From NCBI GenBank assembly GCA_038065095.1, contig JBBTRR010000006.1, positions 20,713 through 84,712 on the forward strand: a stretch of DNA of 64,000 bases. The letters run 5' to 3'. The DNA is from Patescibacteria group bacterium. GTDB taxonomy: Bacteria > Patescibacteriota > Minisyncoccia > JACQLN01. Below the pieces are notes generated by a model. The model saw only the letters and a list, made by a program, of their open reading frames with translations, searched no databases and was not told the DNA's origin. The position numbers were made by a program, and so were the translations under genes. This document shows, one piece after another, positions 23,035 through 44,729 of the stretch. Position 1 is the first letter of the stretch. The number at the start of each line of letters is the position of its first letter.

Positions 23035-24081
23035 ATGCTAGATATTTCATTTCAAGTAGCAAAAATATTAACTTTAGCTTTTGGAGCTTTTGCTTTGGCT
23101 ATGATTTTAACTCCGTGGTGGACAAATATTCTTTATAAATATCGCCTAGGCAAACAAATAAGAACCGAGGGCGCGCCAATTTTTACCTCTATGCATAAAG
23201 ATAAAGAGGGTACACCCACAATGGGTGGTGTAATTATTTGGCTAACAACACTTATTTTAATTGCTGGATTGGCGATCTTAAAAGAATTAATGCCAAATAG
23301 TTTGGCCTCTGGTTTAAGTTTTTTATCTAGACCTCAAACATTATTACCCATAGGTATTATGATTTTTTCGGCCATAATAGGCTTAGGCGACGATATTTTA
23401 GGTGTATTTAAAATAGGTCCTAAGGGTGGTGGTTTAAAAATGCGTCATCGTTTACTTCTTTATACAGTAGTAGCCATAATAGGAGCGTTATGGTTTTATT
23501 TCAAACTAGACTGGACAACTGTTAAAGTTCCATTTTTAGGAAATTTTGATATAGGCTACTGGTTTATACCTTTTGCCACATTTATTATTGTAGCTACTTC
23601 TTTTTCTGTAAACGAATCCGATGGTTTAGATGGCTTAGCCGGAGGCTTGATGCTAACAGCTTTTGCCAGTTACGGCTTAATAGCTTTTTTTGAAAGTAAA
23701 TATGAATTAGCTGTTTTTTGTGCTGTGGTTGTAGGCGCTCTACTTTCTTTTCTTTGGTTTAATATACATCCAGCTAGATTTTTTATGGGTGACACCGGTG
23801 CGATGCCTCTTGGTATAACTTTAGCAGTTATTGCTTTGTTAACTAATTCAGCTTTGGTTTTACCCCTTATAGCTTTTGTGCCAATGATGGAATCAGTTTC
23901 AGTTATTGTGCAGGTTATTAGCAAAAAATTACGCCACGGTAAAAAAATCTTTCTTTCGGCTCCAATACATCATCATTTTCAAGCCAAAGGCTGGCCAGAA
24001 ACTAAGGTTACGGAAAGATTTTGGATTATTTCAGTTGTTATGGCTGCAATTGGAATAATCATACAATTGATAGGAAAATAA
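23035..24081 (+). CDS. mraY: phospho-N-acetylmuramoyl-pentapeptide transferase
   Basis: 10-TM MraY topology. Motifs GGVIIW, NESDGLDGLAGG and MGDTGAMPLG. Confidence 0.9.
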   Translation: MLDISFQVAKILTLAFGAFALAMILTPWWTNILYKYRLGKQIRTEGAPIFTSMHKDKEGTPTMGGVIIWLTTLILIAGLAILKELMPNSLASGLSFLSRPQTLLPIGIMIFSAIIGLGDDILGVFKIGPKGGGLKMRHRLLLYTVVAIIGALWFYFKLDWTTVKVPFLGNFDIGYWFIPFATFIIVATSFSVNESDGLDGLAGGLMLTAFASYGLIAFFESKYELAVFCAVVVGALLSFLWFNIHPARFFMGDTGAMPLGITLAVIALLTNSALVLPLIAFVPMMESVSVIVQVISKKLRHGKKIFLSAPIHHHFQAKGWPETKVTERFWIISVVMAAIGIIIQLIGK

Positions 24082-24110
24082 ATTATTTTAAATATGCTAA
24101 AATAATATCA

Positions 24111-25691
24111 ATGGCATTTGATATTCTCATTAAAAATGGATCTATTGTAGATGGAACTAGCCAACATCCTGCTTACAAAGCAGACATTGGTATTATTGGC
24201 GATAAGATTTTCGAAATAGGAAACCTTTCTAAAGCCAAGGCTAAAAAAGAAATAGATGCAGCAGGAATGGTTGTATCTCCGGGTTTTATAGATGTTCAAA
24301 ATCATTCCGATAGCTACGGCAGTATTTTAAATGACAATATTTTAGAAAGTATGGTTCGCCAAGGTATAACAACTATACTTATGGGGCAATGCGGATCTTC
24401 CCTAGCTCCACTTCTTAAAGGTTCTTTGGTATCTGTTCAGAAATGGGCCAGTACCGCTGGCATAAATATAAACTGGACAAGTATGGCAGAATTTTTAGAG
24501 ACTCTTTCAAAAAGAAAAACCAGCTTAAATGTTGCTTCACTTACCGGACACGCTACATTAAGAAGAGACTTTGTAGGAAACTCTGTTAGACCATTAACTC
24601 CTAAAGAAGAAATGCAAGTAAGCTCTCTATTAAAAAGATCTTTAACAGAAGGTTCTTATGGTTTATCTATTGGCTTGGCTTATAGTCACGAAAGATTGGC
24701 TACAGCAGAAGAACTTATAAAATTATTAAACACAACTAGATATTCTGGTGGAGTAGCTTCTTTCCATTTACGAAACGAAGGCGCCGAAATTTATGCTTCA
24801 TTAAACGAAGTTTTAGGTTTTTTGCATCATGCACCAATTAAAGCAAAAATAAGCCATTTAAAAATGCTGGGCGAGAAAAATATTATGGCCGCTGAAAAAC
24901 TTTTACGAATGATTGATGTCGCTAAAAGCAATGGAATTAATTTAAGTTTTGATGTTTACCCATATACAGCTTCGGCTATTATTCTTTATCTTTTGCTTCC
25001 CGAATGGGCTATTGTCGGCGGAAAAAATGAACTTATTAAAAAAATAAAAAATAGTGGCACGCACGAAAAAATTGTTCGTGATATTGAAAGCAAAAATTAT
25101 CCTTACGAAAAAATAACTATTGCCACCAGCGCCTTAGGACAGCTTTTTGTAGGAAAAAGTCTAGCTCAAATAGCCCGCGATCAAATTACTTCTGGTGCTG
25201 AAGCTATTTTAAACCTACTGCTAGCAGCCCGCGATCAAATTACTGTATTTTGGAACGATATAGATGAAACAGTTTTTGAAACCCTGTTAAAACACCCAGC
25301 TTCTATTATTGCCACTGATGGTTCTGGCTATAATAATGCAGTTAAAGAAAAGAATACTGTGCCTCACCCGCGCTCTTTTGGTACAACCGCCAAAATTTTA
25401 GAACGCTACGTAAAAGAAAAAAAGGTTTTAAGCTTAGAAGAAGCTGTGCATAAAATGTCGGCTAAACCAGCCGAATGGCTGGGTTTAAGAAATAGGGGAA
25501 TTATAAAAAAAGGTTTTTTTGCCGATATCGTAATTTTTGATCCTTTAAACATTAAAGATAATTCTACCTTTGAAAACCCTTTAAAATATCCATCAGGTAT
25601 TAAAAATGTCTTGGTTAATGGAAAAATTGTAGTAAATGAATCTGGATTTTCCGGAACCCTAGCTGGCCAAGTATTAAAAAAAGGATTTTAA
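24111..25691 (+). CDS. amidohydrolase, N-acyl-D-amino-acid deacylase (D-aminoacylase) family
   Basis: ILIKNGSIVDG...ADIGIIGDKIFEIG...GMVVSPGFIDVQNHSD. ATG at 24111 preferred over the ORF-track start. Confidence 0.7.
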   Translation: MAFDILIKNGSIVDGTSQHPAYKADIGIIGDKIFEIGNLSKAKAKKEIDAAGMVVSPGFIDVQNHSDSYGSILNDNILESMVRQGITTILMGQCGSSLAPLLKGSLVSVQKWASTAGININWTSMAEFLETLSKRKTSLNVASLTGHATLRRDFVGNSVRPLTPKEEMQVSSLLKRSLTEGSYGLSIGLAYSHERLATAEELIKLLNTTRYSGGVASFHLRNEGAEIYASLNEVLGFLHHAPIKAKISHLKMLGEKNIMAAEKLLRMIDVAKSNGINLSFDVYPYTASAIILYLLLPEWAIVGGKNELIKKIKNSGTHEKIVRDIESKNYPYEKITIATSALGQLFVGKSLAQIARDQITSGAEAILNLLLAARDQITVFWNDIDETVFETLLKHPASIIATDGSGYNNAVKEKNTVPHPRSFGTTAKILERYVKEKKVLSLEEAVHKMSAKPAEWLGLRNRGIIKKGFFADIVIFDPLNIKDNSTFENPLKYPSGIKNVLVNGKIVVNESGFSGTLAGQVLKKGF

Positions 25692-25692
25692 A

Positions 25693-26784
25693 ATGAAAAA
25701 CCATAGTAAAGCGGCAACAACATTTATAATGGCTACCGCTGTTTTGGTTTTGCTTGGTATAGCTGTAATGACCAACGCTTCTATACCTCTTGCTCAATCC
25801 AACCACGGCGAAAGTTTTTATTATTTTAAACATCAAATAACATATGGCTTAGGTTTAGGGCTTTTAGCCTTTTTTATTTTTTATAGAATAAATATAGCTC
25901 TGCTTAAAAAATTCGCGTTACCAGTTTTGATTTTTGCGATAGTTTTATTAAGTTTGGTTTTTGTGCCTAAGATAGGTTTTGAGGCTTTAGGAGCCAAACG
26001 TTGGATAAATATTTTTGGTTTTTCATTTCAACCTTCGGAATTTGCCAAATTAGCTTTGGTGATTTACTTAGCCCATTGGCTAGAATCTAAGAAAGATAAA
26101 ATTAAAAAACCCACGATGATATTTCCTTTTTTATTATGGACAGGAATTATTGGCGGATTAATAATTTTAGAACCAGATTTTGGAACATTCATAATAATCT
26201 GTGCCACAGCTTTTGCAATGTATTTTATGGCAGGTTCTGATTTAAAAACTATGGGTTTAGTTTTTTTAACTGGCATAGTTTTGCTTATTTCTTTAGTTGC
26301 TGTAGAACCATATCGTAGAGAACGCTTTACTTCGTTTCTTAATCCAGATCGTGATGCCGCAGGTTCCGGCTATCAATTAAAACAAGCTCTTATTGCTATA
26401 GGTTCGGGAGAATTTACCGGTTTAGGTTTAGGCAAAGGAATACAAAAATATAATTATTTACCAGAAACCATTGGCGATTCTGTTTTTGCTGTGGTTTCCG
26501 AAGAACTTGGTTTTATAGGATCAACTTTGGTTTTATTTATTTATTTAATTTGGGTGCTAAGTGGTTTAAAAATCGCTTCGCTTTCCAAAGATCTTTTTTC
26601 GCGATATTTAGTTATAGGTATAGTGGCTTGGATAGGCTTGCAAGCTTTTATAAACGCTCTGGGAATTTTAGGCATGATTCCTTTCACAGGTATTCCCTTA
26701 CCGTTTATAAGCTATGGTGGCACGGCCTTAATGATAGAACTAGCAAGTATTGGTATGGTGGCCAATATTGCTAAAAATAGATAG
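25693..26784 (+). CDS. ftsW: SEDS family peptidoglycan glycosyltransferase (FtsW/RodA)
   Basis: 10 TM helices, GSGY, GxSxxxxxxxLW-like regions. Follows mraY. Confidence 0.85.
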   Translation: MKNHSKAATTFIMATAVLVLLGIAVMTNASIPLAQSNHGESFYYFKHQITYGLGLGLLAFFIFYRINIALLKKFALPVLIFAIVLLSLVFVPKIGFEALGAKRWINIFGFSFQPSEFAKLALVIYLAHWLESKKDKIKKPTMIFPFLLWTGIIGGLIILEPDFGTFIIICATAFAMYFMAGSDLKTMGLVFLTGIVLLISLVAVEPYRRERFTSFLNPDRDAAGSGYQLKQALIAIGSGEFTGLGLGKGIQKYNYLPETIGDSVFAVVSEELGFIGSTLVLFIYLIWVLSGLKIASLSKDLFSRYLVIGIVAWIGLQAFINALGILGMIPFTGIPLPFISYGGTALMIELASIGMVANIAKNR

Positions 26785-26805
26785 ACTTTCAGAAATCATA
26801 TCGTA

Positions 26806-26849
26806 GTGTCCCGAGCATACGATCGTATGCTCGGGACACGTTTTAGTTT
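26806..26849 (+). terminator. 34-nt perfect palindrome intrinsic terminator
   Basis: gtgtcccgagcatacgat|cgtatgctcgggacac followed by GTTTTAGTTT. Confidence 0.8.
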
Positions 26850-26900
26850 GACAAATATGTTTTAATATTTTAGACTCAAGCCAAGTTCCTTAATATGTCT

Positions 26901-26948
26901 CCGAGAGGAGACTCACATTCCCGAGAGGGAATAAACCTTCGAGAGGAG
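26901..26948 (+). promoter_or_regulatory. three direct repeats yCGAGAGGRR at about 19-nt spacing ending at the start codon
   Basis: ccgagaggag at 26901, ccgagaggga at 26921, tcgagaggag at 26939. The last doubles as the SD. The first lies in the palindrome gtctccgagaggagac. Confidence 0.5.
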
Positions 26949-26955
26949 AAGTTTT

Positions 26956-27714
26956 ATGGATATTTTCGTAAAACAAAGCGCTGAAATATTGTTAGGAAAA
27001 AAATTAAGTATGAATCTGTTAGATTCTCTTGTGGAATTACGAAAAGAAATAGATGAAATAGATTTTGAATATATATTGAATCGTTCCCAAAATGAAGAAT
27101 GGGAAGTAGCCGCAAAAATATCACAAGCCGTAGTGGTGCGTACATACGGAGGTGATGCTTGGTCTAAATTAATCCGAAAAGAAATTTTTACTAGTAAATT
27201 TGGGGCTACACCTTTTTTCTTGGCAGGATTAGTACTTGGTTCTTTTAGAGCCGCTATTTGGTTAGATGAAAATTGTCCAACCAGAACATCTTTCTCGGAT
27301 CGTTTTCCTAGAATTATTGAGGAGTTTATTATTTGCCAAACCGAAGTTACAAAAATTACCGGTGCAACTATTTCAAATCCTAAATATGCATCGGAACTTT
27401 CAACTTTAGTAAAAAAATGGGCGGGTGGTAATCCCGATAAGAGCGCACCTGCTTCTTGGTGTAGCCAAGGAATCAGGCTAGGCGAAATAGGAAATATTTT
27501 TGTTCACGTGCAAGCCACCATAGAAGATGCGATGTTCGGTAAACTATCGCCGATAGGACAAGAAGTGTTGAATCAGTTAAACTATGCGGCTTTTAGCCTA
27601 CTGTCTGTAGAAGGTAGGTCGGCAGCGATGGAATATATGTTAAGTGGATCACATACAAACAGGATTTCAGAAAGACTAGCAAAAAGAGCTAGAGGAGCTA
27701 CCCCAATGAGGTAA
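26956..27714 (+). CDS. hypothetical protein, GC-richer insert between ftsW and murG
   Basis: 252-aa ORF with no recognisable motif. Flanked by strong terminators on both sides. Composition differs from neighbours. Confidence 0.5.
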   Translation: MDIFVKQSAEILLGKKLSMNLLDSLVELRKEIDEIDFEYILNRSQNEEWEVAAKISQAVVVRTYGGDAWSKLIRKEIFTSKFGATPFFLAGLVLGSFRAAIWLDENCPTRTSFSDRFPRIIEEFIICQTEVTKITGATISNPKYASELSTLVKKWAGGNPDKSAPASWCSQGIRLGEIGNIFVHVQATIEDAMFGKLSPIGQEVLNQLNYAAFSLLSVEGRSAAMEYMLSGSHTNRISERLAKRARGATPMR

Positions 27715-27721
27715 ATAACCA

Positions 27722-27756
27722 CAGGCAATCGATAATCGGTTGCCTGCTTTTTAATT
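27722..27756 (+). terminator. intrinsic terminator
   Basis: caggcaatcg-ataat-cggttgcctg then CTTTTTAATTT. Confidence 0.65.
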
Positions 27757-27782
27757 TAAAAAAATACTGCTAAAGTAGGTAT

Positions 27783-28910
27783 ATGAAAAACCTAAGGATA
27801 ATGCTGTGTGGCGGGGGAACAGGCGGGCATGTTTTGCCGTTGGTAGCCGTAGCTAGAGCCATTAAAAAACTTAATCCAACTGCCAAAATATACTTTGTTG
27901 GCCCAGAAGAATTCTCTTTAAATGCTTTACGCGAAGAAGGCGTAATAGTTAAAACCATAATCGCCGCGGGCAAAATAAGACGATATTTTTCGTTTAAAAA
28001 CTTTTGGGAAATAATAAAAATCCCTTTTGCCTTTATACAATCTTTAATAGTTGTGACATCCATAAACCCTAATGTGACTTTGGGCAAAGGCAGTTATGGC
28101 AGTGTGTTGCCCGTGCTAGCAGCCGATATTTTATTTAAAAAAACAATAATACATGAATCTGATGCTATACCCGGTTTAGCTAATAGATTTCTTTCTTATG
28201 TTACAGATAATGTGGCAATTTCTTTTGAAGAAGCCAGAAAATATTTTAATAACAAAAATGTATATTTAACCGGTAACCCTATACGAACAAATTTTATAAA
28301 CTTAAGTAAGGGGGAGGCGAGTAGTGTTTTAGATATTCAAACCGACAACCCTCCTTCGCATAAAGCTTCGGAAGGGCAAGGAAAAGTTATATTTATAAGT
28401 GGTGGGTCACAAGGTGCACAAAGAATTAATAATGCTGTATTAAAAGCTTTAGATTCGCTTTTAGAAAAATATTTTGTCATTTGGAGTGTAGGCAAAAATA
28501 ATTTTGATTCTATAAAACAAAAAATATCAAACAAAGATAATATAAAACTGTTTGATTTCTTAAACGAAAAAGAAATAGCTTCGGCTTACATACTATGCGA
28601 CCTTGCCGTGGGCCGCGCTGGCGCTGGCACAATTTTTGAACTAGCTGCTTTTGCTAAACCAAGTATCTTAATTCCACTGGAAAGAAAAGGTGGCGACCAG
28701 CCTGTAAATGCCTTCTCCTACACTAAAACAGGCGCTTCTTTTCTATTAAGAGAACGTGATTTAGATAACTTTAAAGAAACCCTAGAGAATATACTAAACG
28801 ACGACTCCAAACTAGATTCAATGCATGAAAATGCCGAAAAATTTGGTAAAATAGAAGCAGCCGATAGCTTAGCAAAAATATTATTAGATCTAGCAAAAAA
28901 TGAAAGTTAG
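27783..28910 (+). CDS. murG: undecaprenyldiphospho-muramoylpentapeptide beta-N-acetylglucosaminyltransferase
   Basis: GGGTGGHVLPLVAVARAI N-terminus. GT28 C-terminal domain. Confidence 0.9.
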   Translation: MKNLRIMLCGGGTGGHVLPLVAVARAIKKLNPTAKIYFVGPEEFSLNALREEGVIVKTIIAAGKIRRYFSFKNFWEIIKIPFAFIQSLIVVTSINPNVTLGKGSYGSVLPVLAADILFKKTIIHESDAIPGLANRFLSYVTDNVAISFEEARKYFNNKNVYLTGNPIRTNFINLSKGEASSVLDIQTDNPPSHKASEGQGKVIFISGGSQGAQRINNAVLKALDSLLEKYFVIWSVGKNNFDSIKQKISNKDNIKLFDFLNEKEIASAYILCDLAVGRAGAGTIFELAAFAKPSILIPLERKGGDQPVNAFSYTKTGASFLLRERDLDNFKETLENILNDDSKLDSMHENAEKFGKIEAADSLAKILLDLAKNES

Positions 28911-43631: not shown

Positions 43632-44729
43632 TCACATTACCTTTTCCAAAAACTCAATAATCTTTCTTTCCGTATGCCAATCATCTGGCAGAGGAAAAGC
43701 TTTCTCCTGCTGGCGACAGCACCTATCTTGACCTGCCGAAGTTAATAGGAATTGGATAGCATCAGCTAGTTGATCACGACTACTGGCTTTGACAGCCCCA
43801 CCAAGTTCAGCAACAAACCAAGTTTCACCACCTGTTTGAATCTTCACACGAGCCCGAACACCTTCGTCGTTAAGGTAAATACCCGGCACACGGGCATAAG
43901 CACCAGCAATGGAAATATTCGTACCACTGGCGTAAATCATTACATCAGCCGAGCCCGCAATCCGCGCACCTTTCCAAATCTTTGTATCGTTTGTATTAGC
44001 AACCCAGATATCTTCCAATATTTTAGAACGTTCAACGAAGAGTTGAGTGAAACGCTCTTCATCACCGGGTTTATTGGGATCAGGCCTTTCGCCGGGGTGT
44101 TTGCCGACCACTAGCACGATACCCCTTGCATCCATACCAGCGAGAGCTTCCTTGACCACTTTGATGATGCGGTTGTTTTCCTCGGGCTCTTTGCCTAAAA
44201 TCAAGCCGACAGACCGGTCATTCTTGCTCAAACCGATTTCTGTGCTGACTCCAGAGATCTCCACTAATTTCTTCCGCCGTGGCCAGTTTTCGGCCTTGGC
44301 TTGCATCAGCGACTCATATTCTAACCTCCATTGCGGTGGTGGACCAAGATACACAGTCCCATCATATCCAAATTCTTTTGCGGCTTCAGATCCAGAAGGA
44401 TGAGCTAGAAAAACCAACTTGGCCCGATAAGCCCAATAATCCTTGGCCTTGGGTCGGAGACAAGCGCCGGGTACATCTTCAAACACAAACCATGGTGTTT
44501 GAAATTTGAGACAAAAATCCGCAAACTCCAACTCCTGTTCCGTTTCAAAACTGGAAAGGCCAGTAACCATAGCATCCAAATCTATTAGTTCTTGTCCTCT
44601 CTCTTTGGCCAAACCACGAACCTGTTTGGGGAATAGGGTCACTTCGTGACCCCTAGTTTCAGCCTCTTTGGCAAGCAACGCCATAGCATCGCCTCCAGCA
44701 TTATCAAAGCAGAAAAATCCGATCTTCAT
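43632..44729 (-). CDS. GT-B fold glycosyltransferase-like protein, anomalously GC-rich
   Basis: MKIGFFCFDNAGGDAMALLAKEAETRGHEV resembles the GT-B N-terminal glycine-rich loop. C-terminal ASGTN...RVPGIYL. R/G/A-rich composition unlike neighbours. Confidence 0.45.
   Translation of the reverse strand: MKIGFFCFDNAGGDAMALLAKEAETRGHEVTLFPKQVRGLAKERGQELIDLDAMVTGLSSFETEQELEFADFCLKFQTPWFVFEDVPGACLRPKAKDYWAYRAKLVFLAHPSGSEAAKEFGYDGTVYLGPPPQWRLEYESLMQAKAENWPRRKKLVEISGVSTEIGLSKNDRSVGLILGKEPEENNRIIKVVKEALAGMDARGIVLVVGKHPGERPDPNKPGDEERFTQLFVERSKILEDIWVANTNDTKIWKGARIAGSADVMIYASGTNISIAGAYARVPGIYLNDEGVRARVKIQTGGETWFVAELGGAVKASSRDQLADAIQFLLTSAGQDRCCRQQEKAFPLPDDWHTERKIIEFLEKVM

Follow-up and report, generated by a model that had tools for sequence, protein, structure and literature searches.

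Between ftsW and murG in a genome of the Patescibacteria (candidate phyla radiation, CPR) lies a gene for a 252-aa protein whose start codon is preceded by three short direct repeats. The gene is contained in a low-GC (35%) stretch of 64 kb, which we refer to as the window. Comparison with homologous loci indicates that the repeats are RNA hairpins rather than a double-stranded DNA site. We consider it probable that the gene is a self-contained module, in which a leader of tandem GAGA hairpins masks the Shine-Dalgarno (SD) sequence and sets translation and whose coding part is swapped as alleles.

In the mechanism that we propose, a monocistronic module made up of promoter, structured 5' leader, coding sequence (CDS) and terminator would have entered the ftsW-murG junction in one small clade. 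Its leader RNA of about 72 nt, with a 5' end predicted near 26883, would fold into three tandem GAGA-tetraloop hairpins with pyrimidine-purine (Y-R) closing pairs, and the folded state would hide the ribosome-binding site, the SD being the 3' arm of the last hairpin. Since the motif travels with the protein family wherever it was found, the leader most likely governs translation initiation as a cis-regulatory element. A trans-acting factor may read the GAGA loops and modulate ribosome access, and because the motif was seen only before this protein family, the simplest candidate for such a factor would be the gene's own product (autogenous control). The alleles, finally, would be exchanged between lineages through recombination in the leader and terminator flanks.

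Anatomy, covariation and specificity of the leader

A sequence-only reading of the window had described a protein without recognisable motif between ftsW and murG, framed by a palindromic terminator and a second hairpin and preceded by three copies of a repeat, the last of which was thought to form the SD. This anatomy is borne out. The open reading frame (ORF) is flanked by genes assigned by Pfam, both hairpins score as terminator-like, and CGAGAGG occurs at 26902, 26922 and 26940, that is at spacings of 20 and 18 nt. With only four copies on the two strands of the whole window (2.1 expected), three of them within 45 nt are not due to chance. Copy 1 sits in GTCTCC-GAGA-GGAGAC, and copy 3, GAGAGGAGA, does form the SD, its end lying 7 nt ahead of the ATG. 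Beyond what had been described, copy 2 is a perfect hairpin too, copy 3 is a 4-bp hairpin and a sigma70-like promoter stands before the repeats. With a promoter-like site, a leader and a terminator-like site of its own, the gene also has the makings of the independently regulated unit that had been suspected. The parts of the locus are as follows.

25693-26784: FtsW (PF01098, E 4e-98)
26806-26849, + strand: terminator-like hairpin after ftsW, a 34-nt perfect palindrome at 26806-26839 (15-bp stem, 4-nt loop) followed by a T-rich tail, GTTTTAGTTT
26848-26876, + strand: sigma70-like promoter TTGACA-17-TAGACT from a computed scan, between the first terminator and the repeats
26884-26891, + strand: pyrimidine-rich element AGUUCCUU, kept in four clade members
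26897-26912, + strand: leader hairpin 1, GUCUCC-GAGA-GGAGAC, 6 bp, GAGA tetraloop
26917-26932, + strand: leader hairpin 2, AUUCCC-GAGA-GGGAAU, 6 bp, GAGA tetraloop
26937-26948, + strand: leader hairpin 3, CUUC-GAGA-GGAG, 4 bp, whose 3' arm is the SD, 7 nt before the ATG
26956-27714, + strand: CDS of 252 aa between ftsW and murG, its product identical to GenBank MEK7629479.1 and annotated only as 'hypothetical protein'
27722-27756, + strand: module-ending terminator-like hairpin (27722-27746) and T tract, CTTTTTAATT
27783-28910: MurG (PF03033 and PF04101)

Hairpins 1 and 2 are included in both the minimum free energy (MFE) and the centroid folds of the window leader, and a 96-nt region that was folded against 200 shuffles has a z-score of -3.6, with none of the 200 shuffles folding as well. 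The MFE fold in addition pairs the pyrimidine-rich element AGUUCCUU with the SD region, and this element is thus a possible alternative anti-SD. A start-codon hairpin of the same fold was dropped, as it is not conserved in the sister loci L002-L004. In a second assembly of the window's organism (L001, ENA ERZ1286166 contig_1842, about 99% identity), in which frameshifts split almost every gene, hairpin 2 reads CCUGAGAGG with a U-G closing pair, which may be a real variant or an assembly error.

The evidence that carries the RNA interpretation comes from homologous loci. Leaders were compared for all homologue loci that were retrievable, 13 independent leaders with a GC content of 33-58%, among the sources of which are the DNA of ten distant members and one locus from a metagenome scan. 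Each of them has one to three, mostly two or three, GAGA-loop hairpins upstream of the start codon (GAAA in L152), and the leaders of 11 independent homologues other than the window mostly adopt the same tandem-hairpin fold. The loop positions are alike in many leaders (in the window at about -53/-33/-15 relative to the start codon), and all distant-member leaders are preceded by a promoter of the TTGAC(A/T) type with TAnnnT about 17 nt downstream, as read by eye. The stem sequences are wholly different between taxa: L153 has GGCGC/GCGCU, GCCUCC/GGAGGC and UUCUUU/AAAGAA, and L084 has UUUCCC/GGGAAA, UCCUCC/GGAGGA and AAACUUCC/GGGGGUUU.

When 29 hairpins from 12 leaders are aligned, 93% of the stem cells are paired as compared to 63% in shuffles, a figure to be read with regard to the selection of these hairpins for at least three pairs, by which the inner three to four positions are partly paired by construction and only the outer ones are unbiased. 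Two-sided changes occur at all six stem positions, and the closing pair is always Y-R (C-G in 20/29 hairpins, U-A or U-G in the other nine), while the loop is GAGA in 27 hairpins and GAAA in two. A MAFFT alignment of ten leaders, which extends over the last two hairpins to the start codon, shows helix 1 to be 100% paired with covariation in 5/6 pairs and helix 2, the SD hairpin, to be 85% paired; sliding the partner by 1-3 columns lowers pairing to 46-64%. With GGAG, GGA or GGGGG as the 3' arm of the last hairpin in 11 of the 13 leaders, the element falls by its structure into the SD-sequestering class. This arm ends 3-10 nt before the start codon in 11/13 leaders, L153 and L155 being the exceptions. 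An enclosing helix of UUCCUU with the SD is predicted in only about half of the leaders and is a possible further feature. Taken together, the comparative data favour a translational control element, which had been the third of the alternatives offered by the sequence-only reading.

How specific is this leader for the family? A scan for two neighbouring GAGA hairpins over 1.94 Mb, which included 12 independent family leaders, found them before ten of the 12, with L158 and L163 having one GAGA hairpin and a variant loop; outside the family it returned one weak AU-rich case and pattern-selected viral repeats. With a covariance model of the motif, R1, family leaders reach 33-53 bits and no other sequence exceeds 19.7 bits. 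The model recovers two leaders from outside its training set, L153 with 32.9 and L168 with 35.7 bits. Its match in the window (26915-26958, 48.8 bits) is the only one in the 64 kb. The leaders of the L155 subfamily, where the hairpins lie further upstream and the SD is unpaired, are missed by the model. In L168, the true start codon as located by R1 lies within a wrongly called ORF. Public gene calls P0003, P0010, P0020 and P0023 also start too early, so that the leader is translated as an N-terminal extension, and mis-called starts are found as well at L082 110-169 and L168 1445-1591; the false N-terminal peptides FERR, SREG and FREE are translated TTCGAGAGG and CCCGAGAGG. The motif model is thus of practical use for the correction of such extensions.

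Known RNA families gave no counterpart: a scan of the whole window at the gathering thresholds of Rfam 15 found two tRNAs only, and a permissive scan of 26700-27850 (E up to 10) yielded only chance matches of miRNA, snoRNA and lncRNA families on the palindrome. Limited full-text literature searches, including the motif catalogues PMC5737381, PMC2864571 and PMC11109978, returned no description of the motif. As far as we found in this limited literature, leader motif and protein family are both new to description.

Viral contigs contain repeats that resemble the motif. A scan for three copies of CCGAGAGG gave 66 loci, mostly tandem direct repeats and none of them related to the family. Two IMG/VR contigs of putative phages (L099 465-543 and L129 492-570) carry four tandem hairpin-like repeats of the UUUCC-GAGA-GGGG type, about 1.2 kb upstream of an ORF for a CI/LexA-like (S24 peptidase-type) repressor, where the family gene is not involved; R1 scores these repeats at 13.6-19.7 bits. 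Five others (L095, L107, L111, L121 and L141, also IMG/VR) have three direct repeats CGAGAGGGGTGTCAC at a spacing of about 21 nt, which look like DNA iterons or operators.

The protein family and its alleles between ftsW and murG

An exhaustive, profile-free search of 1.84 billion representatives gave 33 matches, two of which are low-complexity artefacts. The remaining 31 members are all-alpha proteins of 235-390 aa with the common motifs GLxLGLFxAxxWLD, YESxLSQAIKAW.R and LDQLxYAxFG. All placeable members belong to the Patescibacteria, and two further homologue contigs were placed by the cluster names of neighbouring genes, one as Buchananbacteria/Parcubacteria-like and one as 'Patescibacteria group'. 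With the protein alone, a search of GTDB genomes found no match, relatives being reached via FtsW, and a word-index protein search returned the same organism only, or three proteins when the family profile was used. A metagenome scan with a 4-member alignment gave three loci, and no homologues were found in phage and plasmid collections.

In agreement with the lack of a recognisable motif noted in the sequence-only reading, the core domain of the 31 members has no match in Pfam, NCBIfam, PHROGs or PADLOC, and a profile search of the PDB gave nothing better than E > 0.6. AlphaFold2 predicts a structure of 14 helices with high confidence (pLDDT 91.8, pTM 0.89) from the family alignment, which is required for this, the single sequence reaching a pLDDT of 36. 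Compared by Foldseek with PDB and BFVD, the model retrieved weak alpha-solenoid-like noise (best E 0.34, TM at most 0.41). Two members are fused to known domains, P0033 to a C-terminal STAS domain (L152 1897-2997) and P0011 to TPR repeats (L153 743-1906). Further variants, P0017, P0021, P0024 and P0028, have a partial duplication of the last helices. Together with the fusions to STAS (anti-sigma antagonist-like) and TPR domains, they are hints of a role in protein-protein interaction or partner switching. The contexts of the homologues are unrelated to one another: family genes lie beside a Mur ligase and an amidase, before alaS, near pnp/rpsO or near rplS. In L168 (5873-7377) a pair of HTH and Gp49 (HigB-like) genes and a tyrosine integrase are found about 4-5 kb from the family gene; none of the other loci that were examined hints at a mobile context.

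In the window the genes run in the order scpA, scpB, D-Ala-D-Ala carboxypeptidase, mraY, a 556-aa amidohydrolase, ftsW, the 252-aa ORF, murG, gltX and M23 peptidase. We took the ftsW neighbourhood from 80 genomes and mapped the window proteins onto them. The nearest GTDB genomes, with FtsW 85-86% identical, are metagenome-assembled genomes (MAGs) labelled 'bacterium' and 'Candidatus Yanofskybacteria'. A family gene stands between ftsW and murG in the window, L001, L002, L003 and L004 only; it is missing in L005 and L006 (FtsW 65-69% identical) and in more distant Patescibacteria in which both genes were found. The gene is therefore lineage-specific and restricted to one small clade of four related species-level genomes (L001 being the organism of the window), and it is no part of the core dcw cluster, ftsW and murG being adjacent elsewhere except in L024 and L039. 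At these two loci unrelated genes are inserted (L024 9130-10544 and L039 2258-5565), and the junction seems to be permissive for insertions in the phylum. Another unusual member of the dcw-like cluster is the amidohydrolase gene (24021-25691, + strand, PF07969/PF01979) between mraY and ftsW, whose place is conserved in the related Patescibacteria L002-L008, L013, L015 and L023; with the TTG listed as its start, the gene overlaps the end of mraY, and the true start may be further downstream.

The clade members differ in an unusual way. From hairpin 1 to the SD, the leaders of L002-L004 are nearly base-for-base identical to that of the window, yet their proteins are only 28%, 29% and 56% identical. 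L002 and L003 share 94% identity in FtsW and 84% in MurG and only 28% in the family protein, and the corresponding values for the window and L004 are 68% for FtsW and 56% for the family protein. Among the four members, identity from promoter to ATG is 0.78-0.91, the unpaired linkers of the leader being conserved as well, whereas identity at the four-fold sites of ftsW is 0.46-0.66 for the window, L002 and L003. By this comparison the leader is under strong purifying selection. The CDS, in turn, has a nucleotide identity of 0.44, less than the 0.66 reached by neutral sites in the gene next to it. Along the locus, identity falls abruptly at the ATG and rises again at the terminator, in whose stem pairing is preserved by compensatory changes in L002, L003 and L004. 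Moreover, the gene tree, in which the window groups with L004, is discordant with the species tree, in which L002 groups with L003.

The most economical reading of this pattern is that alleles are replaced entire from a diverse pool, recombination in the conserved flanks being the mechanism that we infer. The pattern also suggests that the hypervariable protein is under diversifying or conflict-type selection. A mechanism of the diversity-generating retroelement (DGR) type was rejected, since divergence extends over the whole CDS instead of being confined to one short variable region, and since a reverse transcriptase gene is absent from the vicinity.

One part of the locus appears to be young. 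The 34-nt palindrome occurs once in the whole window, and it is missing from the sister genomes L002 and L003, whose promoter comes immediately after the ftsW stop codon, while L004 has a different insert at its position. The ftsW terminator of the window is thus a recent local addition.

In other respects the impression of foreign origin was not sustained. The sequence-only reading had called the gene GC-richer than its neighbours and had taken it for an acquired cassette, but its GC of 0.379 ranks ninth among the 38 ORFs of at least 200 aa (mean 0.350, sd 0.036) and its GC3 of 0.265 is close to their mean of 0.261. With these values inside the ORF distribution and no flanking integrase or transposase, the gene is not marked as a foreign island. 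Nor is a recent arrival supported, as the slot is occupied in all four clade genomes and it is the allele inside that changes. Typical composition together with conservation at this position had been named as what would speak against an inserted cassette: the composition is indeed typical, and the position is conserved within the four-genome clade but the gene is absent in the next relatives. The feature itself is real; it is more specific than first read, being a conserved RNA leader, and less unusual in composition. A better candidate for foreign DNA in the window is the ORF at 43632-44729 (- strand, 365 aa), a clear compositional outlier (GC 0.472, GC3 0.42) without a Pfam match.

Weighing the alternatives

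Several observations weigh against the reading of the gene as a module with an SD-masking leader and exchanged alleles, besides the selection of the 29 hairpins mentioned above. In the L155/P0017 subfamily the GAGA hairpins are located 30-130 nt upstream and the SD lies outside of them, so that SD masking is not universal, and L158 and L163 each carry a deviating loop (AAGA, UUAGCG) on one of their two hairpins. The family is not basic, its median isoelectric point (pI) being 6.0, which disfavours a classical RNA-binding autoregulator. As the R1 search covered 1.9 Mb, the motif may precede other genes in these genomes. As to the swapping of alleles, very fast evolution in situ may have produced the divergence instead. 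Finally, all genomes are uncultured MAGs, and regulation and binding are predicted from sequence.

But could the hairpins be conserved without being read by anything? Hairpins with GNRA tetraloops are stable by themselves, and stem-loops at the 5' end protect mRNAs in bacteria. A passive element of this kind, which stabilises the 5' end of the mRNA or tunes basal translation without any ligand or factor, would also fit with a protein that is not basic. We regard it as unlikely, though of the rivals it holds up best. Stability would admit any GNRA or UNCG loop, yet GAGA and, rarely, GAAA are the loops used and the closing pair is Y-R throughout. Furthermore, tandem number and spacing are kept across very distant genomes, and in the window clade the leader is conserved far above neutral sites, linkers included.

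The layout of two or three short covarying hairpins with invariant tetraloops and variable linker, the last of them at the SD, would by analogy also fit a small riboswitch with the architecture of guanidine-II (mini-ykkC). This strikes us as improbable. GAGA loops are unable to form the Watson-Crick loop-loop pairs formed by ACGR, the downstream gene is neither a transporter nor an enzyme of an identifiable pathway, its hypervariability is unusual for riboswitch genes, and even at E up to 10 the riboswitch families of Rfam remained unmatched.

A marginally weaker case can be made for mimicry of the ribosome, in which the hairpins would copy the C-GAGA-G of the 23S rRNA sarcin-ricin loop (SRL) and be read by a translational GTPase or a ribotoxin. 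The heptamer CGAGAGG has the same sequence as the core of an SRL oligonucleotide from E. coli, GGGCUCCUAGUACGAGAGGACCGGAGU, and SRL oligonucleotides in isolation are bound by EF-G and IF2 (PMC3496166). Toxins that cleave the SRL occur widely in loci of bacterial conflict (bioRxiv 10.64898/2026.09.18.752725), and the hypervariability of the protein would fit an arms race. The leader would then be a triple SRL decoy that senses damage or occupancy: cutting or binding by an SRL-directed ribotoxin (PIN/VapC20-like, a BECR-like SRLase or an N-glycosidase) or by an SRL-binding GTPase would open the SD hairpin and induce a hypervariable countermeasure protein with a new fold. If true, such a decoy would be an RNA-based alarm for ribosome attack in the reduced genomes of Patescibacteria. 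However, only tetraloop and closing pair match, the bulged-G and flexible regions being replaced by Watson-Crick stems, and in nine of the 29 hairpins the closing pair is U-A or U-G. As GAGA is only one of eight GNRA loops, moreover, the agreement is of low information content. None of the loci has a toxin gene next to the family gene, and PADLOC gave no match. We therefore give the decoy very little weight.

Least probable of all, and hardly tenable, is a DNA-level element, as in the iteron or regulator-binding array that the sequence-only reading had put first: three direct repeats at 18-20 bp spacing just downstream of a promoter-like site, two of them inverted repeats as operators often are, would suit a transcription factor or replication protein, but the asymmetric GAGA centre is invariant and the arms vary while staying complementary, which is the opposite of what a dimeric DNA binder predicts, G-U (T-G) stem pairs are tolerated that form only in sense-strand RNA, the orientation is always sense, the position is fixed relative to SD and ATG, and no rep or partition gene is nearby. 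It is for these reasons of loop, arms, strand and distance that we take the repeats to be an RNA element.

The reading of the gene as a translationally controlled, allele-swapping module thus leaves it in the class of structured SD-masking 5' leaders, with a new motif attached to a new protein family. Tandem Y-GAGA-R hairpins ending in the SD would add to it a very compact bacterial leader, short enough for full mutagenesis, and the leader would be a first way into the function of a Patescibacteria-specific family whose structure is predicted with confidence and which has no relatives in the libraries. The combination of an ultra-conserved leader with a swapped coding region points to a gene that probably acts in conflict or recognition, and this in organisms with a little-explored biology (episymbiosis, phage pressure).

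Comparison with known systems

Among described leaders, the guanidine-II riboswitch (mini-ykkC, RF01068) is closest in layout. It too consists of tandem short covarying hairpins (see PMC9094411) with invariant tetraloops and a variable linker; its 3' hairpin adjoins the SD, and it acts on translation. It differs in that its loops are ACGR and not GAGA and that it has two hairpins, whereas up to three are found here. Its loops pair mutually around guanidinium, which GAGA loops cannot do, and its genes encode guanidine exporters (SugE/EmrE-type) or carboxylases, while here it is always the all-alpha family without Pfam match that follows.

In mode of action, the leader would resemble autogenous translational operators such as the coat/replicase hairpin of MS2, the thrS operator bound by ThrRS and the ribosomal-protein leaders, which likewise are hairpins that hold or abut the SD and are read by a protein through the loop. 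Often the product of the operator's own gene binds, and some of these operators mimic a cellular RNA (tRNA or rRNA). Different from them, the putative binder here would be an acidic to neutral protein without known RNA-binding domain, and the site is triplicated and has a plain GNRA loop. With the SRL of 23S rRNA the leader shares CGAGAGG, a GAGA closed by C-G, in all three window copies and 20/29 hairpins; its hairpins are without the bulged-G motif and flexible region (AGUA/GAA) and are ordinary helices of variable sequence.

ANTAR targets are tandem hairpins read through conserved loop nucleotides while their stems vary. These dual-hairpin targets resemble the present leader in their constant loop and variable stems. 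However, they have hexaloops, act in antitermination and overlap a terminator, and at our locus there is neither an ANTAR protein nor a terminator overlap.

With regard to the coding region, the comparison is with hypervariable allelic loci such as polymorphic toxin immunity genes, hsdS or surface antigens. The family gene differs from these in having no partner toxin, restriction or secretion gene nearby and in encoding a cytoplasmic all-alpha protein of no known family. It does not qualify as a polymorphic-toxin immunity gene either, since in all loci the neighbours are housekeeping or uncharacterised genes and no toxin domain was seen. What it shares with hypervariable loci is their genetic signature: near-identical flanks, divergent alleles and a discordant gene tree.

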